This document shows positions 4,077 through 41,127 of a stretch of 64,000 bases of DNA, piece by piece. The DNA comes from a virus: IMG/VR virus record IMGVR_UViG_3300037507_002457, positions 4,235-68,234 of that record. One strand, 5' to 3'. The translations under genes and the position numbers were made by a program. The notes beneath the pieces were generated by a model. The model searched no databases and was not told where the DNA came from. It saw nothing but the letters and a program-made list of their open reading frames with translations. Numbering within the stretch: position 1 is the first letter of the stretch; each line of letters begins with the position of its first letter.

Positions 4077-4766
4077 ATGCTAAAGAATATCAAGTTTGCC
4101 CGGTTTGGTGGGCTTAGTTCAGTCAATCAAAAGGGATATGATTCGAACTGTGATGGCTATCATTCTCCTCCCGCCAAGCGTGGCTTTTATGCGTTTCTTT
4201 GGCCGTATTATGAGTTCTTTCTTCTCAGCGGTGGATTATGGACAAACTATCCTTGGTCAATAGGCACCAAGTTCATTTACTTAAAAGACGCCAAGGGTAA
4301 TATCATTGACGAAAATCATCCTGATCATGAATACTTTTCCAGCACAGGAAAGTATTGGAGCATTCCCACCAAAGAATGGTATTTTCATCATAAGAAACAT
4401 CCTGAATATGAAGACCCCGAATATGATGCTAAGTTGGAGGCACATTGTATTGATTGGGAAACAAATCACGGAGATAAGCCCAAGTGGGTGTTGGCTCAAA
4501 AGCCTTCGCCCAGAATCTTTGAGTACAAAGGAAATATCTGGCATCATTTGACCTGCTATCTCGGACCTTCTGGTGCACTGAAGCAGAAAGGTGGTTGGAC
4601 TCTTTCGCCATTTGACGAATACGCAAAAGCATTACAAAAAAACATGCACGCTGGTCGCAGGACACAGTGCGAATACAATTCCAACAAAGGACTACCGAAG
4701 TCCAACAAAAATCCTTATGTGGGAATATCCAAAGATCATCTGGAAGTTTTTATTGAGAAGTTGTAG
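4077..4766 (+). CDS. Hypothetical protein
   Basis: 229 aa ORF behind a sigma70-like promoter. No family recognised. Confidence 0.75.
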   Translation: MLKNIKFARFGGLSSVNQKGYDSNCDGYHSPPAKRGFYAFLWPYYEFFLLSGGLWTNYPWSIGTKFIYLKDAKGNIIDENHPDHEYFSSTGKYWSIPTKEWYFHHKKHPEYEDPEYDAKLEAHCIDWETNHGDKPKWVLAQKPSPRIFEYKGNIWHHLTCYLGPSGALKQKGGWTLSPFDEYAKALQKNMHAGRRTQCEYNSNKGLPKSNKNPYVGISKDHLEVFIEKL

Positions 4767-33873: not shown

Positions 33874-34581
33874 ATGAATCGTGAACTTCTAAAAAAAGCC
33901 ATCAAAAAGTTAGTATTGCAAGAAATCACCAACAATCAGTTTGGTACACCTATTCAATCAGATAAGAAGGATTTGACTGGCGAAGAAGCACTAACCAAGG
34001 CAATGGGCAAGGACGCCAACGTAATGAAAATCCGTGGCACAGGAAAAACCGCAGGAATGAAAGGCAACCAAGAAGTTCAACTAAGCAAAAACTGCGATCA
34101 TTGCTATGACGTTGTGTCTATTACAAATGAATCTGAAAGAAAGATTGCTCGTGGTATTTCTCTTGAAGCAGCAATGGAACTTGTAAAACAACATGCTGAA
34201 AGTTCAGATAAGACATATGTCCAAAAAGCATATGATAAGAGTCTAAAAGGATTTGGTAAGAAGCCATCCGAAAAAGAAGAAGCCAATGAAGCCGACAAGA
34301 TGGATGATGCCGATGAAGAAACTCAAGTTGAAATAGCAGATGATACTACGGTAAAGGCGGAAGAGAAAGTAGATAAAGAAAATGCTCCTATCAACAAAGA
34401 CGTTGCTCCAGCCCTCGGCGGAAGCATCGTTGACAAGATTGAAAAGATTGTAGATAAGGTATTGAAAGATAAAGCAGACGCCAAATCCGCATATCTAAAA
34501 CACGATAAAAGCACAGAAAGCCCAGACAAGCTATCTGTAAAACTAAAAGACACTCCTGCTCTAAAAGAAAAGAAAGCATAA
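33874..34581 (+). CDS. Hypothetical protein with MNRELLKKAIKKLVLQE leader
   Basis: TATTTATA upstream. Highly charged. Confidence 0.75.
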   Translation: MNRELLKKAIKKLVLQEITNNQFGTPIQSDKKDLTGEEALTKAMGKDANVMKIRGTGKTAGMKGNQEVQLSKNCDHCYDVVSITNESERKIARGISLEAAMELVKQHAESSDKTYVQKAYDKSLKGFGKKPSEKEEANEADKMDDADEETQVEIADDTTVKAEEKVDKENAPINKDVAPALGGSIVDKIEKIVDKVLKDKADAKSAYLKHDKSTESPDKLSVKLKDTPALKEKKA

Positions 34582-34582
34582 T

Positions 34583-35014
34583 ATGAAACAAAAAAGCATA
34601 ATCAACGACACATTTGAAAAGCACAAAAAATTGGTGCTTGAGCATTTGAACGAAAAACGCAGAGTTCCTGCAAGCGTAGATACAACATTTGATACGATGG
34701 TAGACATAGATCCAAAGAAACTAGGAAAAAATTTACCTGAACAAATAGAAGTCAATGTTGAAGTATACGCCGAAGGAGAATATGCCGATGCGAGCTTTGA
34801 CCATGAATTTGGAACACATGATCCGGGAAGTGGATACGAAATAACTAAGGTTATAGTAACTGCAAAAGAAGATACATATGTGTTTGATGCAGAAGGAAAT
34901 CAAACAAGCGAGATATTATTTAATGCTGGAGACACTATAGATCAAAAATCCATAGTATCTAACATAGACGACGAGATTTATGAAAAGCTCGCTGGCGCTG
35001 GAAGCGATTATTGA
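34583..35014 (+). CDS. Hypothetical acidic protein with TFEKHKKLVLE leader
   Basis: Leader matches that of the ORF at 53521. Confidence 0.75.
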   Translation: MKQKSIINDTFEKHKKLVLEHLNEKRRVPASVDTTFDTMVDIDPKKLGKNLPEQIEVNVEVYAEGEYADASFDHEFGTHDPGSGYEITKVIVTAKEDTYVFDAEGNQTSEILFNAGDTIDQKSIVSNIDDEIYEKLAGAGSDY

Positions 35015-35041
35015 TAAGTCTTAATAATCAACAACTTAAAG

Positions 35042-35068
35042 ACCCCACACAAAAATGTGGGGTTTTTT
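35042..35068 (+). terminator. Rho-independent terminator
   Basis: ACCCCACA-loop-TGTGGGGT followed by a T run. Confidence 0.8.
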
Positions 35069-35069
35069 A

Positions 35070-35098
35070 TTGACTTCATATAAAAAGTGTACCATAGT
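35070..35098 (+). promoter_or_regulatory. Sigma70-like promoter
   Basis: TTGACT-17 nt-CATAGT, with the ATG at 35107. Confidence 0.55.
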
Positions 35099-35106
35099 AC
35101 ATACAT

Positions 35107-35406
35107 ATGAATAAGACCAAAAAGAATATGCCCACCGACACCAAGACGTTTATCGACCAGTCTGCTGACATCAAGCCCAGCAAGCTATATATGAAGGATA
35201 TCAAGTGGAAGTATCTTGTTCGCAGTGCTCTGCGTGGCAAGAATATTCTTATTGTTGGTCCAACAGGACATGGGAAAACCTTCGCGGTCCAATGCTTGGT
35301 TGAAGCCCTTTCTGAAACTATTGAAGAAGAGGTTACGGAAGAACGCCTTAACGAACTCAAGGCTACAGAAAATATCACTATTATAAAAACAGAAGAACTA
35401 AAATAA
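35107..35406 (+). CDS. MoxR/CbbQ-like AAA+ ATPase, N-terminal fragment
   Basis: KNILIVGPTGHGKT Walker A, then a stop after an acidic tail. Confidence 0.85.
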   Translation: MNKTKKNMPTDTKTFIDQSADIKPSKLYMKDIKWKYLVRSALRGKNILIVGPTGHGKTFAVQCLVEALSETIEEEVTEERLNELKATENITIIKTEELK

Positions 35407-35445
35407 TGGCGTGGAATATTCTACTGACTTATATTTATATATGTC

Positions 35446-36051
35446 ATGATAATATACAAAACTACTAATATTCTTAATGGAAACTATTACATCGGAAAAG
35501 ACAGCAGAAACAACCCACATTATTACGGGTCTGGACTTGCTCTTAAATCCGCGATAAAAAAATACGGCAAAAATAACTTCGTAAAAGAAACTCTGGAAGT
35601 TGTGGTGGGTAAAGATTTATCAAACCTATTGGAACGAGAGATATACTGGATTGATAAATACAATGCGATAAATGACCAAAACTCATACAATTTACAAAGA
35701 AACAGTGGTTTACGACCAAAGATAGTCACCAAAGAAGAAACACGAAAAAAAATAAGCCGAGCAGTTAAGCGAGCATTTAAAAACGAAGAATATAGAAAAA
35801 AAATAACAGAACACAATCAAGGAGAGTCAAATCCAATGTTCGGAAAATCTCAATCCGAATATCAAAAAAAACGAGCAAGTGAAGCAAATAAAGGAAAAGT
35901 TTATTCAAAAAAGACAAGACAAAAAATTAGTGATGCAAGAAAAGGAAAATCATTCTTGACAAAAGAAGGTAAAAAAAATATTGCAGAAGCAACAAAAAAA
36001 AGATGGGAAATATATCGTCGTGAAAAACAAAACATACAAAGTAACTTATAA
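35446..36051 (+). mobile_element. GIY-YIG homing endonuclease with NUMOD3-like repeats, inserted inside the AAA+ gene
   Basis: MIIYKTTNILNGNYYIGK..YYGSG..EREIYWI..YNL, NPMFGK, YSKKTRQKISDARKGK. Has its own TATTTATA motif at about 35432. Confidence 0.9.
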
Positions 36052-36787
36052 GAAACATCGGCCATTTATGGCCATTAACCTTGGGAGTACGCAAGATGCC
36101 CGAGCTACGCTAATTGGAAATACTCAATTCTCCAAAGAAACTGGGACATTCTTCCAAGAATCTCCATTTGTGAAGGCCATCTCTACACCGAATTCAATTA
36201 TTCTACTCGACGAGTTGAGCAGAGCCCATCCCGACGCTATGAATATTTTAATGCCAGTGCTCGACAATCAAAAGTATTTGCGACTGGACGAATCGGGTGG
36301 AAAAGTTGTGAGAGTTGCTGATGGGGTATGTTTTATCGCAACCACCAACATTGGCAACGAATATACCGCTACCCGCGTGATGGACAAGGCTTTACTTGAT
36401 CGTTTCACCGTCAAGATTGAGGTTGATATTCTTTCGCAGAATACAGAGATGGAACTCATCAAGACCCACTGCCCCGATGCCAATATGAACACCATGCTGG
36501 CGGTTACGGAAATTGCTGCTGCTACCCGCGAGTTTGCTTCTCAGGGCAAGTTGAGTAAGTTCATTTCTACTCGTAGCGTCAAGGAAATGGCCGAACTTAC
36601 CGTCGATGGATTCAACCTCACAGAACTTGCTGATATGGTTATTTATCCCGATTATCCGGATGATGGTGGACTTGATTCCGAACGTACTCTGGTAAAGCAG
36701 GTTGTGCAAAAGTATATCAGCACCGAGACCAACAACAATCTTTATACCGCTACCGCCAATACTCCTGACGGCAGCACCCCCTTCTAA
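36020..36787 (+). CDS. MoxR/CbbQ-like AAA+ ATPase, C-terminal fragment
   Basis: RPFMAINLGSTQDARATLIG, Walker B IILLDELSRA, FIATTNIG, DKALLDRF, ISTR. The GTG start at 36020 is inferred. Confidence 0.8.
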   Translation: MKNKTYKVTYKKHRPFMAINLGSTQDARATLIGNTQFSKETGTFFQESPFVKAISTPNSIILLDELSRAHPDAMNILMPVLDNQKYLRLDESGGKVVRVADGVCFIATTNIGNEYTATRVMDKALLDRFTVKIEVDILSQNTEMELIKTHCPDANMNTMLAVTEIAAATREFASQGKLSKFISTRSVKEMAELTVDGFNLTELADMVIYPDYPDDGGLDSERTLVKQVVQKYISTETNNNLYTATANTPDGSTPF

Positions 36788-36789
36788 TA

Positions 36790-38853
36790 ATGAAAAAGAA
36801 ATACGCAGAGTATTCCAAGTTCTGGCTTGGTGAGGACTTTTCTAAAGAAAAGTTGGATGTAGATACTACATACGGACTTATCAAGTTGTCTGAGTACCGC
36901 CGTGCGGTCAGTAATTTTGTGTATATTCTTACCGGCAAGAACATTCCTGTTCGTTTTGCAGAAAAGAGTACGTCAATGACTGATGGCAAGGTTGTGTATA
37001 TTGGAGGCGAAATCTCCAAGGGTGAGTTTGATCCTACCGTTGGTATTGCTCTACACGAAGCCGCTCACATCGTAAAGTCTGACTTTTCTCTTATCAAGAC
37101 GCTGTGGGGCAAGGTTCCCAATAATCTTGTCAAATCCGCCAACGGTTTGATGAACCACAACGATATTGGCGAACTTTGTAAGTATATTCTCAACGTCGTT
37201 GAAGATAGATACATTGATGCTTGGGCATATCAGATTGCTCCTGGCTATCGTGGTTATTATCACGCCTTGTATGATAGATATTTCAATCTTCCTGAGATTG
37301 GTCAGGCTATTCAGTCTGACAACTATCGTACTCCTACTCTTAGCAATTATAAGTTTCATTTTACAAACCTTGTAAATAAGAACTACGATCCAGATGCTTT
37401 GCCTGGTCTTCGCAAGATTACGGAGATGCTGGATGTTAAGAACATTCTTAGAAATGAACTTTCTACTGCTGTGAGCAGGCGAGATCTTTCTATGGAGATC
37501 GTCGAAGAGATTATCAAGAATGTGATTGATGGTCACAATAACTCCAATTCTTCTCAAAAGAATAGCACCAAGTCAGAAGACGGTGATGATTCTTCTTCTG
37601 ATTTCCTTGGCGGAACCGAGGATTCGGTGGATAGTATTCCAGATTCCGATGATTCGGGGGACGGCGATGACGCTAATGGCGAAGACGACTCGGATGATGC
37701 CGACAATACTGGCGATGGAGACAAAGAGGATACGGATAATGAAAAGTCCGATAAGCCTGCCAAGGCAGAGAAAAAAGTTTTGACCGATAAGAAGATGGCT
37801 GCTATTGAAAAAATTATCAAGAAGCAAGAGTCTTTTATCAACAGAACCGCTGCTGTGTCTCCTTTCAAGAGCAAGGTTATCAGTAAGTTGAATACACTTG
37901 AAAAGAGTGGCGTCAATATCGAAGTCGTTGGCGGAGAAGATGGTATTCCTCCCGTTGAGTGTATCGTTGTTACTAATCTTACAAAGGAACTTATGAACTC
38001 CAACGAGTTTCCGTATACCAACGGCTATACGTCCTTACAAGAAAATATGATGGGGACTCGCGGAGTGCGTAGTGGAATTGCTATTGGTACAATGCTTGGT
38101 CGCCGCCTACAAATCCGAAACGAAGTCAAGACTACAAAGTTTACCCGACAGGATAGTGGTAGAATTGACAAGCGACTGATTGCTTCTATTGGCTATCAGA
38201 ACGAAAACCTGTTCTATCAGACCAGCGTAGATAAGTACAAGAATGTTCATCTACATATTTCTGTTGATGCCTCTAGTTCAATGAGCAGCAAGTGGGAAAA
38301 CACAATCTCTACCCTCGTCGCTATTGCCAAGGCTGCTAGTATGATCAACAACGTCTCTGTATCTATTTCTTTTAGAAGTGGAGTCAGACTAAGCACCAGA
38401 CAAAGTGAACTTCCTTATGTGGTAATCGCATATGATTCCAGAAAAGACAATTTTACCAAGATCACCAGCCTATTCCCGCTTCTTTTTCCTTCGGGTTCTA
38501 CTCCAGAAGGTCTGGCGTTTCAGGCTATTCTGGAGCATATTCCGCAATCTACATATGAATCTGACTCGTACTTTGTGAATATTTCCGACGGTGAGCCTGC
38601 GTTCAATATTGGCAATATTGTTTATGTTGATACAATTGCATCCAACCATACACGCAAGCAAGTTCGCAAGATGATGGAGAAGGGCACAGAAGTAATCAGT
38701 TATTATGTTGAAGCGGATAAATATAATACGGATAATAATGTAAAGAATTTCAAGAGCATGTACGGCAAAGATTCGCATTTCATTGATGTAAAGAATGTTG
38801 TGCAGATTGCTCATACGCTCAACAAGAAGTTTTTGTCTAAAGCAACTGCCTAA
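36790..38853 (+). CDS. vWA-domain protein with N-terminal HExxH metallopeptidase-like domain (CobT-like MoxR partner)
   Basis: TDGK, LHEAAH, NVVEDRYID, acidic D/S linker, GRID, MIDAS VDASSSM, TPEG, NISDGEP. Confidence 0.85.
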   Translation: MKKKYAEYSKFWLGEDFSKEKLDVDTTYGLIKLSEYRRAVSNFVYILTGKNIPVRFAEKSTSMTDGKVVYIGGEISKGEFDPTVGIALHEAAHIVKSDFSLIKTLWGKVPNNLVKSANGLMNHNDIGELCKYILNVVEDRYIDAWAYQIAPGYRGYYHALYDRYFNLPEIGQAIQSDNYRTPTLSNYKFHFTNLVNKNYDPDALPGLRKITEMLDVKNILRNELSTAVSRRDLSMEIVEEIIKNVIDGHNNSNSSQKNSTKSEDGDDSSSDFLGGTEDSVDSIPDSDDSGDGDDANGEDDSDDADNTGDGDKEDTDNEKSDKPAKAEKKVLTDKKMAAIEKIIKKQESFINRTAAVSPFKSKVISKLNTLEKSGVNIEVVGGEDGIPPVECIVVTNLTKELMNSNEFPYTNGYTSLQENMMGTRGVRSGIAIGTMLGRRLQIRNEVKTTKFTRQDSGRIDKRLIASIGYQNENLFYQTSVDKYKNVHLHISVDASSSMSSKWENTISTLVAIAKAASMINNVSVSISFRSGVRLSTRQSELPYVVIAYDSRKDNFTKITSLFPLLFPSGSTPEGLAFQAILEHIPQSTYESDSYFVNISDGEPAFNIGNIVYVDTIASNHTRKQVRKMMEKGTEVISYYVEADKYNTDNNVKNFKSMYGKDSHFIDVKNVVQIAHTLNKKFLSKATA

Positions 38854-38922
38854 TGTTATAATAAAAAGTATTTGACTTTATATATTATGTCTCCATAATA
38901 GGTACATAATTAAGCAATACCT

Positions 38923-41127
38923 ATGATTATCAACGAAGCCGTATCTTCTCCTGTTCTTAGCAATGTTCTTGCTGCGCCCAGCCGCTTCAAGATCAAGGCT
39001 AGTGCCAAGGCGTTCAAGATCCTCTCTGGATTCTATAGCGAGCCTATTCTTGCTATTCCGCGTGAACTTGGTGCTAATGCTTGGGATAGCCACGTAAAGG
39101 CTAGTAATACAAACAAGATGTTTGAGGTTCATGCTCCTAACACGCTGGAGCCTTGGTTTGCTATTCGTGATTATGGCACGGGGCTTAGTGCGGATGATAT
39201 TGACTCTATCTATACTACCTACTTTGAGTCCACCAAGACTGGTGATAATGACAGCGATGGTTGCATGGGACTGGGCAGCAAGACTCCCTTCAACTATACC
39301 GACAACTTCAATGTTGTTTCTTGGCATAAGGGCAAGAAGCATGTATATAACTGCTTTATTGATGAAACTGGCTCGCCCAACATCATGCACATTTCTACTC
39401 AAGACAGCAATGAGCATAGCGGTCTTGAAGTCAAGTTCTCTGTAAAGATTGCCGACATCAATATGTGGCACACCAATATTCAGCGTGCATATAGCGTCTT
39501 TCGCTATCGCCCTGTTATTGTTGGTGCTAATATCCAGTATACTGAGCACCAGTATATTATCCGTAATAACCATTGGGCACTTAGAAAGGTTGATCGCGGT
39601 TATAGTTACGGAAATCCGTGTAATGCTTATATGGGTAACTATTCTTACCCCATCAGTGCAGATGTCATCACCCGAGCCGCTTCTAATAGTAATTTGATTT
39701 CGTCTGCTGTTGCAAGGCGTATGCTCGACACTGGTGCTATTGATTTGTATTTTGATATTGGCGAACTGGAAGTTGCTCCTAACAAGGAACAACTTCAGTA
39801 TGATGACACTAATAGCAAGACCGCTAATGCTATTCTGCACGCACTTCGTCGTATGTTTGTCGAAATGTCTGAGTATGTAAAAAAGAACATGGAAGTCCCC
39901 GTTTCTTTGTGGGATGCTATGTGTGTTTATAACAAGTACAATTCGCACACCAGCGAGCACAAAGTTTTGACCAATATTCTTGGCGACATTCAAGTTTCTT
40001 ATAACGGAAGTTCTGTAAATTCTAGCAACGATAATGCTCGCAGAATTATCAACAATACTTTCAAGAACGACGATGCATCCAAAAATTTTAAGACGTATAG
40101 TGTAAATTATACAAAGTCGGCTATTTGGAAGGTTGTTAGCGATGCGAATACAATCGCATTGTCTGATAGGAAGCTGTATGTGTTTCATACCGCAAAGAAT
40201 GTATTCAACAAGTTAAAGGTCTTGGATTATCTCAACAAGCTTGATGATGCTATCAAGAAGAACTGCACGGTGCTTGCTATTATTGATAACACTGCTGGCA
40301 AGAAGGTATATTCTACTTTGGTCAATTATTTTGGCTGGGACAAGACGCCATATGCAACGTTGATCGATATTGATGCTATGCCGCGTGTTGTTGCTGCTCG
40401 CAAGGCCATTACAACTGCCCGCACCGATGAAGTTCATATTGCCAACATTTCTCGCGCCTCTAAGACAAACAGAGTGAATGTTTCTTGGAGCCGCACCGCA
40501 CATGATTTTGATCTCAACAATACTTACTATTATTTCAATTTTCATTACAATACTCCCAGCATTGTAAATAATGGTGGTGAGCCGCAGGACATTTCTATAC
40601 ACGTTGATGAACTTGTAGATATTCTAATCCATAACAATGTGAATCTGGGAACGCATATCTATGGCATCAATGTAAAGAATAAGCATATGCTTTCTGTTGG
40701 TAAGTGGATCAATATCGTTGATGCCGCCAAGAGTGTTGTGGCCAATGATATTGCTACATACGAGCATAAACTTTACTTGAATGGAGAGATGGAAAACTAT
40801 CAAGTGCTTCAGAATCTACACGCAAAGTTGTCTTCACATCCATCAATCATTCAGAATATTAAGAATGAAAATACTCGTGATATGCTTATGACGTTTGTTC
40901 GTACATACACCAATCTTCATAAGGTGTATAATACATCTCCGACTGCATCATTTCTTCATTTCCTTGGCGTCAAGAAAAAGCAGCACGCTGCTATGCCAAT
41001 GAATCTTGAAGAGTTCAAGACTGTCATCAATGACAAGTACTTCAATATCCTTGATGCTATTCCTGCTTATTCTAATCAAATCGCGACTTTATATAACATC
41101 ATCAACTTTATTGATGAGAAGTCATAA
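38923..41127 (+). CDS. rIIA: RIIA-like protein (GHKL/HATPase N-terminus)
   Basis: RELGANAWDSH, IRDYGTGLS, YFESTK, GCMGLGSKTPFNYTD. Followed by an rIIB-like gene. Confidence 0.85.
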   Translation: MIINEAVSSPVLSNVLAAPSRFKIKASAKAFKILSGFYSEPILAIPRELGANAWDSHVKASNTNKMFEVHAPNTLEPWFAIRDYGTGLSADDIDSIYTTYFESTKTGDNDSDGCMGLGSKTPFNYTDNFNVVSWHKGKKHVYNCFIDETGSPNIMHISTQDSNEHSGLEVKFSVKIADINMWHTNIQRAYSVFRYRPVIVGANIQYTEHQYIIRNNHWALRKVDRGYSYGNPCNAYMGNYSYPISADVITRAASNSNLISSAVARRMLDTGAIDLYFDIGELEVAPNKEQLQYDDTNSKTANAILHALRRMFVEMSEYVKKNMEVPVSLWDAMCVYNKYNSHTSEHKVLTNILGDIQVSYNGSSVNSSNDNARRIINNTFKNDDASKNFKTYSVNYTKSAIWKVVSDANTIALSDRKLYVFHTAKNVFNKLKVLDYLNKLDDAIKKNCTVLAIIDNTAGKKVYSTLVNYFGWDKTPYATLIDIDAMPRVVAARKAITTARTDEVHIANISRASKTNRVNVSWSRTAHDFDLNNTYYYFNFHYNTPSIVNNGGEPQDISIHVDELVDILIHNNVNLGTHIYGINVKNKHMLSVGKWINIVDAAKSVVANDIATYEHKLYLNGEMENYQVLQNLHAKLSSHPSIIQNIKNENTRDMLMTFVRTYTNLHKVYNTSPTASFLHFLGVKKKQHAAMPMNLEEFKTVINDKYFNILDAIPAYSNQIATLYNIINFIDEKS

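Follow-up and report, generated by a model that had tools for sequence, protein, structure and literature searches.

The window analysed here is a 64,000-nucleotide (nt) stretch of DNA from an uncultured lake-water phage, positions 4,235 to 68,234 of the IMG/VR record IMGVR_UViG_3300037507_002457, which spans 68 kb and is about 30% complete. Between positions 35107 and 36787 it contains a MoxR/CobS-like AAA+ ATPase gene that is divided into two open reading frames (ORFs) by an endonuclease gene, the cut falling in the loop between helix α1 and strand β2. The N-terminal (N) fragment ends in an acidic peptide and the C-terminal (C) fragment begins with a basic peptide, and these will subsequently be referred to as the tail and the head. 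The features of the locus are collected in Table 1.

Table 1. Features of the split ATPase locus, in window coordinates (aa, amino acids).
Feature	Position	Strand	Remarks
Promoter-like site, TTGACT, 17 nt, CATAGT	35070..35098	+	Consensus scan alone, 9/12 matches
N fragment ORF, 99 aa, Walker A GPTGHGKT	35107-35406	+	ORF reading; TAA stop 35404-35406
N core: N-terminal helices, strand β1, Walker A, helix α1 to EAL	35107..35310	+	
Acidic tail of N fragment, 31 codons and TAA	35311..35406	+	Absent from uninterrupted alleles
Spacer, 39 nt, between N stop and endonuclease start	35407..35445	+	
GIY-YIG/NUMOD3 endonuclease gene, 201 aa, free-standing	35446-36051	+	Own ATG and stop
C fragment ORF	GTG 36020 to 36787	+	Pfam AAA_5, E 7.4e-12, above cut-off
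Basic head of C fragment, GTG start, 12 codons	36020..36055	+	To 36051 overlaps endonuclease ORF, in another frame
Proximal C fragment, strand β2 to past Walker B	36056..36341	+	Divergent haplotype
Distal C fragment	36342..36787	+	Backbone-type sequence
687-aa partner gene with DASSSMS motif	36790..38853	+	Conserved behind split and uninterrupted ATPase genes

The Walker A motif lies in the N fragment, which gives only sub-threshold Pfam P-loop matches. Walker B (LLDE) can be read in the C fragment, the distal part of which presumably carries sensor 1, the Arg finger and the lid domain. The ORFs thus bear out a first-pass annotation of the window, made from the letters alone, that had placed Walker A in the upstream ORF, and Walker B and the Arg finger in the downstream one. 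The C fragment is read in the N frame +1, and taking out 35311-36055 (745 nt) restores a single frame of the same length as the homologues of Mel-JY01 and LR756508. These two, together with P0005/P0006 (86% identity), are uninterrupted homologues that read through the site. In an AlphaFold model of P0006 the break point falls in the loop between the helix at residues 57-68 and the strand at 74-78. The family assignment is to PHROG 249 ('porphyrin biosynthesis', i.e. CobS-like), and midasin and NorQ are the closest solved structures when an uninterrupted homologue is used as the query. Some homologues are longer at the N-terminus: the Mel-JY01 protein (L001 2544-4226) has an extra region of ~250 aa, and several split N fragments (among P0126-P0134) an extension of 80-110 aa, neither of which has a counterpart in the window gene. 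The automatic ORF listing starts the C ORF at TTG 35981. However, seven related split alleles have an ATG at the position of GTG 36020, and this is therefore the likely start, as the first-pass annotation had assumed.

The endonuclease ORF shares its frame with neither part of the ATPase. It matches NUMOD3 above the Pfam cut-off (E 1.2e-7) and PHROG 314 'homing endonuclease' (E 5.4e-30); the GIY-YIG match (E 0.004) reaches 17.8 bits, under the 22.6 cut-off, and the IIY...YIG motif can be read by eye in the ORF. No sequence match was found in the PDB. As had been described from the letters, the gene fills the gap between the ATPase fragments, with the short spacer on its upstream side and an overlap of 32 nt with the C ORF at its downstream end. 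Its base composition is low in GC (0.31), as is that of its third codon positions (GC3 0.24). The tail has a nearly identical GC3 of 0.23 and the head a GC of 0.22, in contrast to a GC3 of 0.56 for the N core and 0.54 for the distal C part. An earlier impression that codon style changes near the junction is therefore correct.

The insertion is present in some related genomes and absent from others at one and the same site. Among 97 locus entries with both halves of the ATPase, 85 are uninterrupted (gap 0-6 nt) and 12 have gaps of 745-929 nt. The latter derive from eight distinct contigs, the window's own record included. Eight split alleles (window, L007, L102, L103, L280, L281, L283 and L284) were examined. 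These alleles form two clades, between which the N cores are only about 42-44% and the endonucleases 34-44% identical. The window endonuclease is 100% identical in three further IMG/VR contigs, 73-74% identical in L007 and L102, and 38-44% identical in the L280-L284 clade. L103 differs in having, within the gap, a GIY-YIG gene that is unrelated and lies on the minus strand. An octamer, TGGAATAT, lies at 35412-35419 in the spacer and upstream of the same-strand endonuclease genes of both clades. It is exact in six of the seven same-strand alleles (seen in the window, L007, L102, L280, L281, L283 and L284, with one mismatch in L283) and absent from L103, the site of the other endonuclease; it may serve the cassette as a promoter or in regulation. 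L284 has an additional 76-aa ORF (4079-4309) between its endonuclease gene and the C fragment.

Comparison with L084, the nearest uninterrupted allele, shows that the window gene is a mosaic. The N core is 94% identical to that of L084 at the protein level. DNA homology ends exactly at 35310 and restarts near 36089. Approaching the break, identity falls from 78-98% to 73-75% over 35236-35310 (60-nt windows). On the downstream side it is 50-67% over 36053-36341, with two 3-nt gaps, and returns to 88-98% from 36342 onwards. The same step is seen in the protein. The proximal C part (90 residues) is 67% identical to L084 and 82-86% identical to the split alleles L007, L102 and L103 (L007 83%), whereas the distal part (137 residues) is 99% identical to L084 and 51-74% identical to the other split alleles (L007 51%). 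Judged by these identities, 35236-35310 is a short co-converted upstream flank and 36056-36341 a downstream co-conversion tract. This mosaic is the pattern expected of homing with co-conversion of the flanks, and the flanks therefore appear to have travelled with the element, as the first-pass annotation had proposed; the evolutionary part of that proposal is strongly supported. Presence and absence at one site among related genomes, together with co-converted flanks, is one of the marks of a free-standing homing endonuclease.

Further sampling of the locus gave the following. The lake run that holds the window's allele also contains a contig whose loose ends read like an L102-type allele. A blastn search of cultured phages with 34000-38000 found no match. 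In tblastn searches of cultured phages the C part matched ten records, all from query residue 26 or later and thus without the head, and the N part two records, both stopping at residue 60 and thus without the tail. Two IMG/VR scans for the deeply diverged N fragments P0126-P0134 returned only uninterrupted relatives. L182 and L251 seemed at first to cover the tail and were rejected, as both are uninterrupted. In P0279 (362 aa, from a 1412-nt contig) the ATPase N core breaks off at the same point (DAL) and is followed by unrelated, seemingly low-complexity sequence rich in Ala, Glu and Gln; this protein reflects either an assembly chimera or a rearrangement at the target of the endonuclease.

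The acidic tail and the basic head that had been noticed at the junction are real features. In the window the tail has an isoelectric point (pI) of 4.3 and a net charge of -6.5, and the head a pI of 10.1 and a net charge of +4.6. In all eight split alleles the tail is acidic (30-34 aa, pI 4.1-4.6) and the head basic (10-13 aa, pI 9.4-10.5), and in all four alleles of clade 1 the tail is exactly 31 aa long. When 22 N fragments, the most distant only about 37-45% identical, are aligned, the tail shows a conserved pattern that is consistent with a strand, helix, turn, strand arrangement. The ratio of non-synonymous to synonymous substitution (dN/dS) is 0.16-0.51 in the nine pairs, out of 12, for which it could be computed, which supports purifying selection on the tail. 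The head is present in L103 and L284, where the endonuclease ORF overlaps nothing of it, and is therefore not a mere shadow of the endonuclease frame. Similarly, L103 keeps both peptides beside an unrelated endonuclease on the opposite strand, so they appear to belong to the split allele and not to one particular endonuclease.

This last observation may also be read differently. Tail, turn and head might be an ancient inserted domain in a subfamily of uninterrupted ATPases, with endonucleases landing later in its hairpin turn as a tolerant site; two unrelated endonuclease genes could then come to occupy one gap, flanked by equivalent tails and heads, as is seen. Such a domain should occur in uninterrupted proteins, and alignment to these places the tail and head in split alleles only: L084 and L285, the uninterrupted relatives of the two clades, have neither. 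A profile of four N parts was searched against 1.84 billion representatives. Among the matches listed, 18 extend to profile position 90 or further, and every one of these is a short protein (82-200 aa) whose sequence stops with the tail; by hand count none of the 68 proteins longer than 250 aa matches past position 73. Similarly, of 75 longer proteins from a set clustered at 90%, not one aligns with more than 76% of the N part. Neither search, then, found an uninterrupted protein with the tail, nor did the protein searches reveal uninterrupted homologues carrying the same insert as a whole. Within the window the best other match to the tail has an E-value of 0.26, which is chance level. The GC3 of the peptides, low like that of the endonuclease and unlike that of the host gene, also speaks against an old domain, and this origin is considered improbable. 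The two features of the Aeh1 NrdA tails (see below), i.e. absence from uninterrupted homologues and opposite charge, are therefore both found here.

The insert might instead be a group I or group II intron with an endonuclease ORF, so that splicing would restore a single mRNA. The last nucleotide of the 5' flank is T (35310) and a G stands at 36052, as group I splice sites need, and one natural protein resembles the precisely joined form. This is P0012, a singleton uninterrupted protein of 320 aa from a 1263-nt contig, in which L103-type flanks are joined directly (EEVIEEE then RRPF), so that the endonuclease, the head and the final 24 residues of the tail are missing. However, the joint in P0012 comes after A and not U. 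Because it is nested among split alleles it is read as a rare rejoining deletion, which it possibly is, and no other rejoined allele of this kind was found. The case against an intron is broader than this. No Rfam intron family was found at E up to 10 over 34800-36500, where the only matches were terminator-like and near 35000, and a conserved group I ribozyme core (P3-P9) is not found. Neither 35311-35445, the 135 nt upstream of the endonuclease gene (z -0.67), nor 35380-35480 folds better than shuffled sequences, the two z-scores being -0.29 and -0.67. The 3' end of the insert is A-rich coding sequence, the 5' part of the putative intron appears to be under selection at the protein level, and in L103 the endonuclease gene is antisense. 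In the single RNA run (X20; 14% of sampled words) only two 151-nt contigs fall on the region, neither with a joint. One of them bridges the endonuclease/C junction unspliced, a weak point against splicing, as it may represent DNA or precursor RNA. Taken at the level of sequence, these results support the absence of splicing at the locus, and an intron is very improbable.

The same RNA-library contig data contain a further observation. The endonuclease ORF has a run of eight A at 35994-36001, in which the sole covering contig (depth 2) has two extra A. With two A added, ribosomes translating the endonuclease would change to the frame of the C fragment, and the two products would be fused. The extra pair could be erroneous, could mark a different strain or could stem from slippage during transcription.

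Inteins offer another possible origin for the peptides, which might be degenerate remnants of a split intein, or the split gene might simply be a decaying pseudogene. A tail and head of 43 aa together are far too small for a Hint fold. No Hint/intein domain was matched in Pfam, and the junction residues vary between alleles (S/T/K/E and H/S/T/R), neither a nucleophile nor an HN being conserved. Decay is difficult to reconcile with a retained Walker A, with 100 invariant columns in an alignment of 13 C fragments, and with open frames in both clades. In favour of the intein idea, split inteins with endonuclease genes between their halves are known (PMC2677866), and Crona et al. (2011; PMC3045599) raised intein remnants in their account of Aeh1. 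Overall, remnant or pseudogene is a highly unlikely explanation. The endonuclease thus appears to be its own free-standing ORF, outside any intron or intein, and on both counts the first-pass annotation is upheld.

The possible reassembly of the two halves was examined by modelling the C and N fragments as a complex, each from its own purpose-made alignment, with three controls. The complex scores 0.75, a value reached by 58 of 80 solved complexes and two of 110 mismatched pairs, and the best of the controls scores 0.00. The runs share at least 95% of their contacts, and the predicted local distance difference test (pLDDT) of the partner is at least 81. The predicted interface includes C residues 3-16, i.e. 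the head, and N residues 68-78, 81, 84 and 89-98, i.e. the tail. The model therefore backs reassembly and is consistent with a pairing of tail and head.

The interpretation favoured here is that the endonuclease-split ATPase is made as two separate polypeptides, and that a selected tail and head help these to reassemble; this is considered probable, though well short of certain. The endonuclease gene sits within the coding sequence of the ATPase, at the place of a loop on the protein surface that joins the Walker A helix to strand β2. The N fragment reads 31 codons into the inserted DNA, and the C fragment would start at its own codon inside the endonuclease 3' end, thereby gaining 12 codons. 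During co-infection the endonuclease presumably cuts uninterrupted alleles, and repair would copy the whole cassette, from the last ~75 nt of the upstream exon and the tail, through the endonuclease gene, to the head and the first ~290 nt of the downstream exon, with mosaic ATPase genes as the product. Selection would then maintain both peptides, the acidic tail as a strand, a helix and a second strand, and the basic head as a single strand. We infer that these peptides pair along the border of the AAA+ sheet and assist the independently translated polypeptides in rebuilding one ATPase domain, which would make the insertion harmless.

Several points weigh against this interpretation. The highest-confidence contacts in the complex model are those of β1 (N 46-50) with C 104-108 and 129-133, which belong to the ordinary AAA+ sheet and not to the tail and head. 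Furthermore, a pass of the model was to be expected because the fold has been solved many times as one chain. The model of the isolated N fragment predicts a helix in the tail (residues 78-86) and no tail strands. Of the βαββ mini-domain that had been proposed for the joined peptides, the helix is thus seen in a model and the strands are not predicted. The two-fragment modelling that had been suggested passes with both peptides in the interface and has its most confident contacts elsewhere. The dN/dS values come from a tail of only 30-31 codons, with synonymous divergence near saturation. No Shine-Dalgarno motif is found ahead of the C start in any allele, nor ahead of the N start. P0012 shows that an open frame is possible without most of the tail and without the head. 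Finally, according to the account of Crona et al. (2011; PMC3045599), the Aeh1 tails are not needed for the association of the two halves and serve instead in the dimerization of heterodimers.

The core contacts, the Aeh1 precedent, in which the tails are dispensable for formation of the a/b heterodimer (PMC3045599), and P0012 can all be accommodated if the tail and head are by-products without a docking role, simply running from the break to the first stop and from the first usable start. The halves would then assemble through the AAA+ core, with β1 inserting into the C sheet. However, by-products would not be expected to keep an identical length in the four clade-1 alleles, a strand-helix-strand pattern in 22 N fragments, the same charge pattern in eight of eight alleles with a tail dN/dS below 1, or a head where no endonuclease overlap maintains it, and both peptides lie within the predicted interface. 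This explanation is therefore thought unlikely, while being the most serious of those considered, and docking of the halves by the peptides remains plausible. A broader claim, that the tail and head form a portable split-and-dock module, a trans-assembled mini-domain that moves with the cassette between diverged lineages, survives replacement of the endonuclease and neutralizes the cut in the AAA+ domain, is put forward tentatively, with the chances lying slightly against it.

The ATPase gene is flanked by a ribonucleotide reductase gene upstream and an rIIA-like gene downstream (38923-41127). A hairpin with a T-run at ~35042-35070, among the terminator-like Rfam alignments, stands directly ahead of the promoter-like site, which is the likely start of the ATPase transcription unit. 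Two small ORFs of 235 aa (rich in Lys, Glu and Asp) and 143 aa lie between the reductase and ATPase genes (33874-35014) and have no Pfam match. A 436-aa ORF on the minus strand (38878-40188) is antisense to the rIIA-like gene and probably spurious. The 687-aa gene behind the ATPase has no Pfam or PHROG match, and homologous ORFs lie downstream of the ATPase in L002, L251 and L280-L285. Its DASSSMS motif, read by eye only, suggests a VWA/MIDAS domain of CobT type. An AAA_5 ATPase with a downstream partner bearing a MIDAS-like motif resembles the MoxR, CobS, NorQ and midasin ATPases with their VWA partners. The solved and named members of that group met in this analysis are, in contrast, all single polypeptides.

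The closest known parallel is the nrdA-a / mobE / nrdA-b arrangement of Aeromonas phage Aeh1, reportedly described by Friedrich in 2007. Crona et al. (2011; PMC3045599) proposed and tested the idea of functional tails for this system. In their description each NrdA fragment has a unique tail, opposite in charge to that of its partner, that came about with the insertion and is essential for activity, the GC-poor endonuclease gene overlaps the downstream fragment, and the fragments are translated separately. The idea of docking is therefore not new. The window locus is similar in that a gene of an essential type is interrupted by a free-standing endonuclease gene, poorer in GC, that overlaps the downstream fragment. 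It differs in the proteins involved, a GIY-YIG endonuclease and an AAA+ ATPase as opposed to an HNH endonuclease and a ribonucleotide reductase, and in the reversed polarity of charge, the Aeh1 pI values being 10.4 and 3.8 where the N fragment is acidic and the C fragment basic here. Aeh1 is moreover a single phage, as presented in that paper, whereas the present case comprises two deep clades and 22 N fragments and persists after an endonuclease swap. Conversely, the function of the tails was tested in Aeh1 and is read here from sequences and a model. The same authors suggested that tails may be a general means of neutralizing gene fragmentation by mobile endonucleases, and predicted that further cases would exist and be hard to find by similarity (PMC3045599).

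Two T4 systems are also comparable. In T4 gene 39/mobA/gene 60 the gene of a phage enzyme is split by a mobile endonuclease cassette that contributes additional sequence, and both products have tail-like extensions (PMC3045599). The T4 cassette, as described, includes a 50-nt ribosomal bypass element (10.1101/2022.08.31.505936), whereas none is seen here, where the gap exceeds 600 nt and the fragments have separate start and stop codons. The intronless homing of the T4 Seg and Mob genes shares the presence/absence polymorphism and the divergent flank travelling with the endonuclease gene (PMC2988022; for exchange bounded by the endonuclease gene, PMC10448857). Most Seg/Mob genes, however, are described as lying between genes, while the window endonuclease lies inside a coding sequence and splits it. 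A full-text literature search, conducted partly through titles and abstracts and with supplementary files outside its scope, found no paper on the splitting of a MoxR/CobS-family ATPase by an endonuclease. The locus is probably a second natural example, in a second protein family, of a device that has until now been studied in a single phage enzyme.

The locus supplies what Aeh1 lacked, namely many diverged natural alleles, both split and uninterrupted, in which the tails are specific to split alleles, apparently selected, element-like in composition and retained through an exchange of the endonuclease. It also provides a clean co-conversion mosaic for the study of intronless homing in uncultured lake phages. 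The compact natural pair of peptides (31 and 12 aa) is a candidate assembly tag for split proteins. If the portable split-and-dock module were true, it would represent a natural and evolvable protein-complementation tag, and would be general evidence that mobile endonucleases can carry an 'antidote' to the gene fragmentation that they cause.

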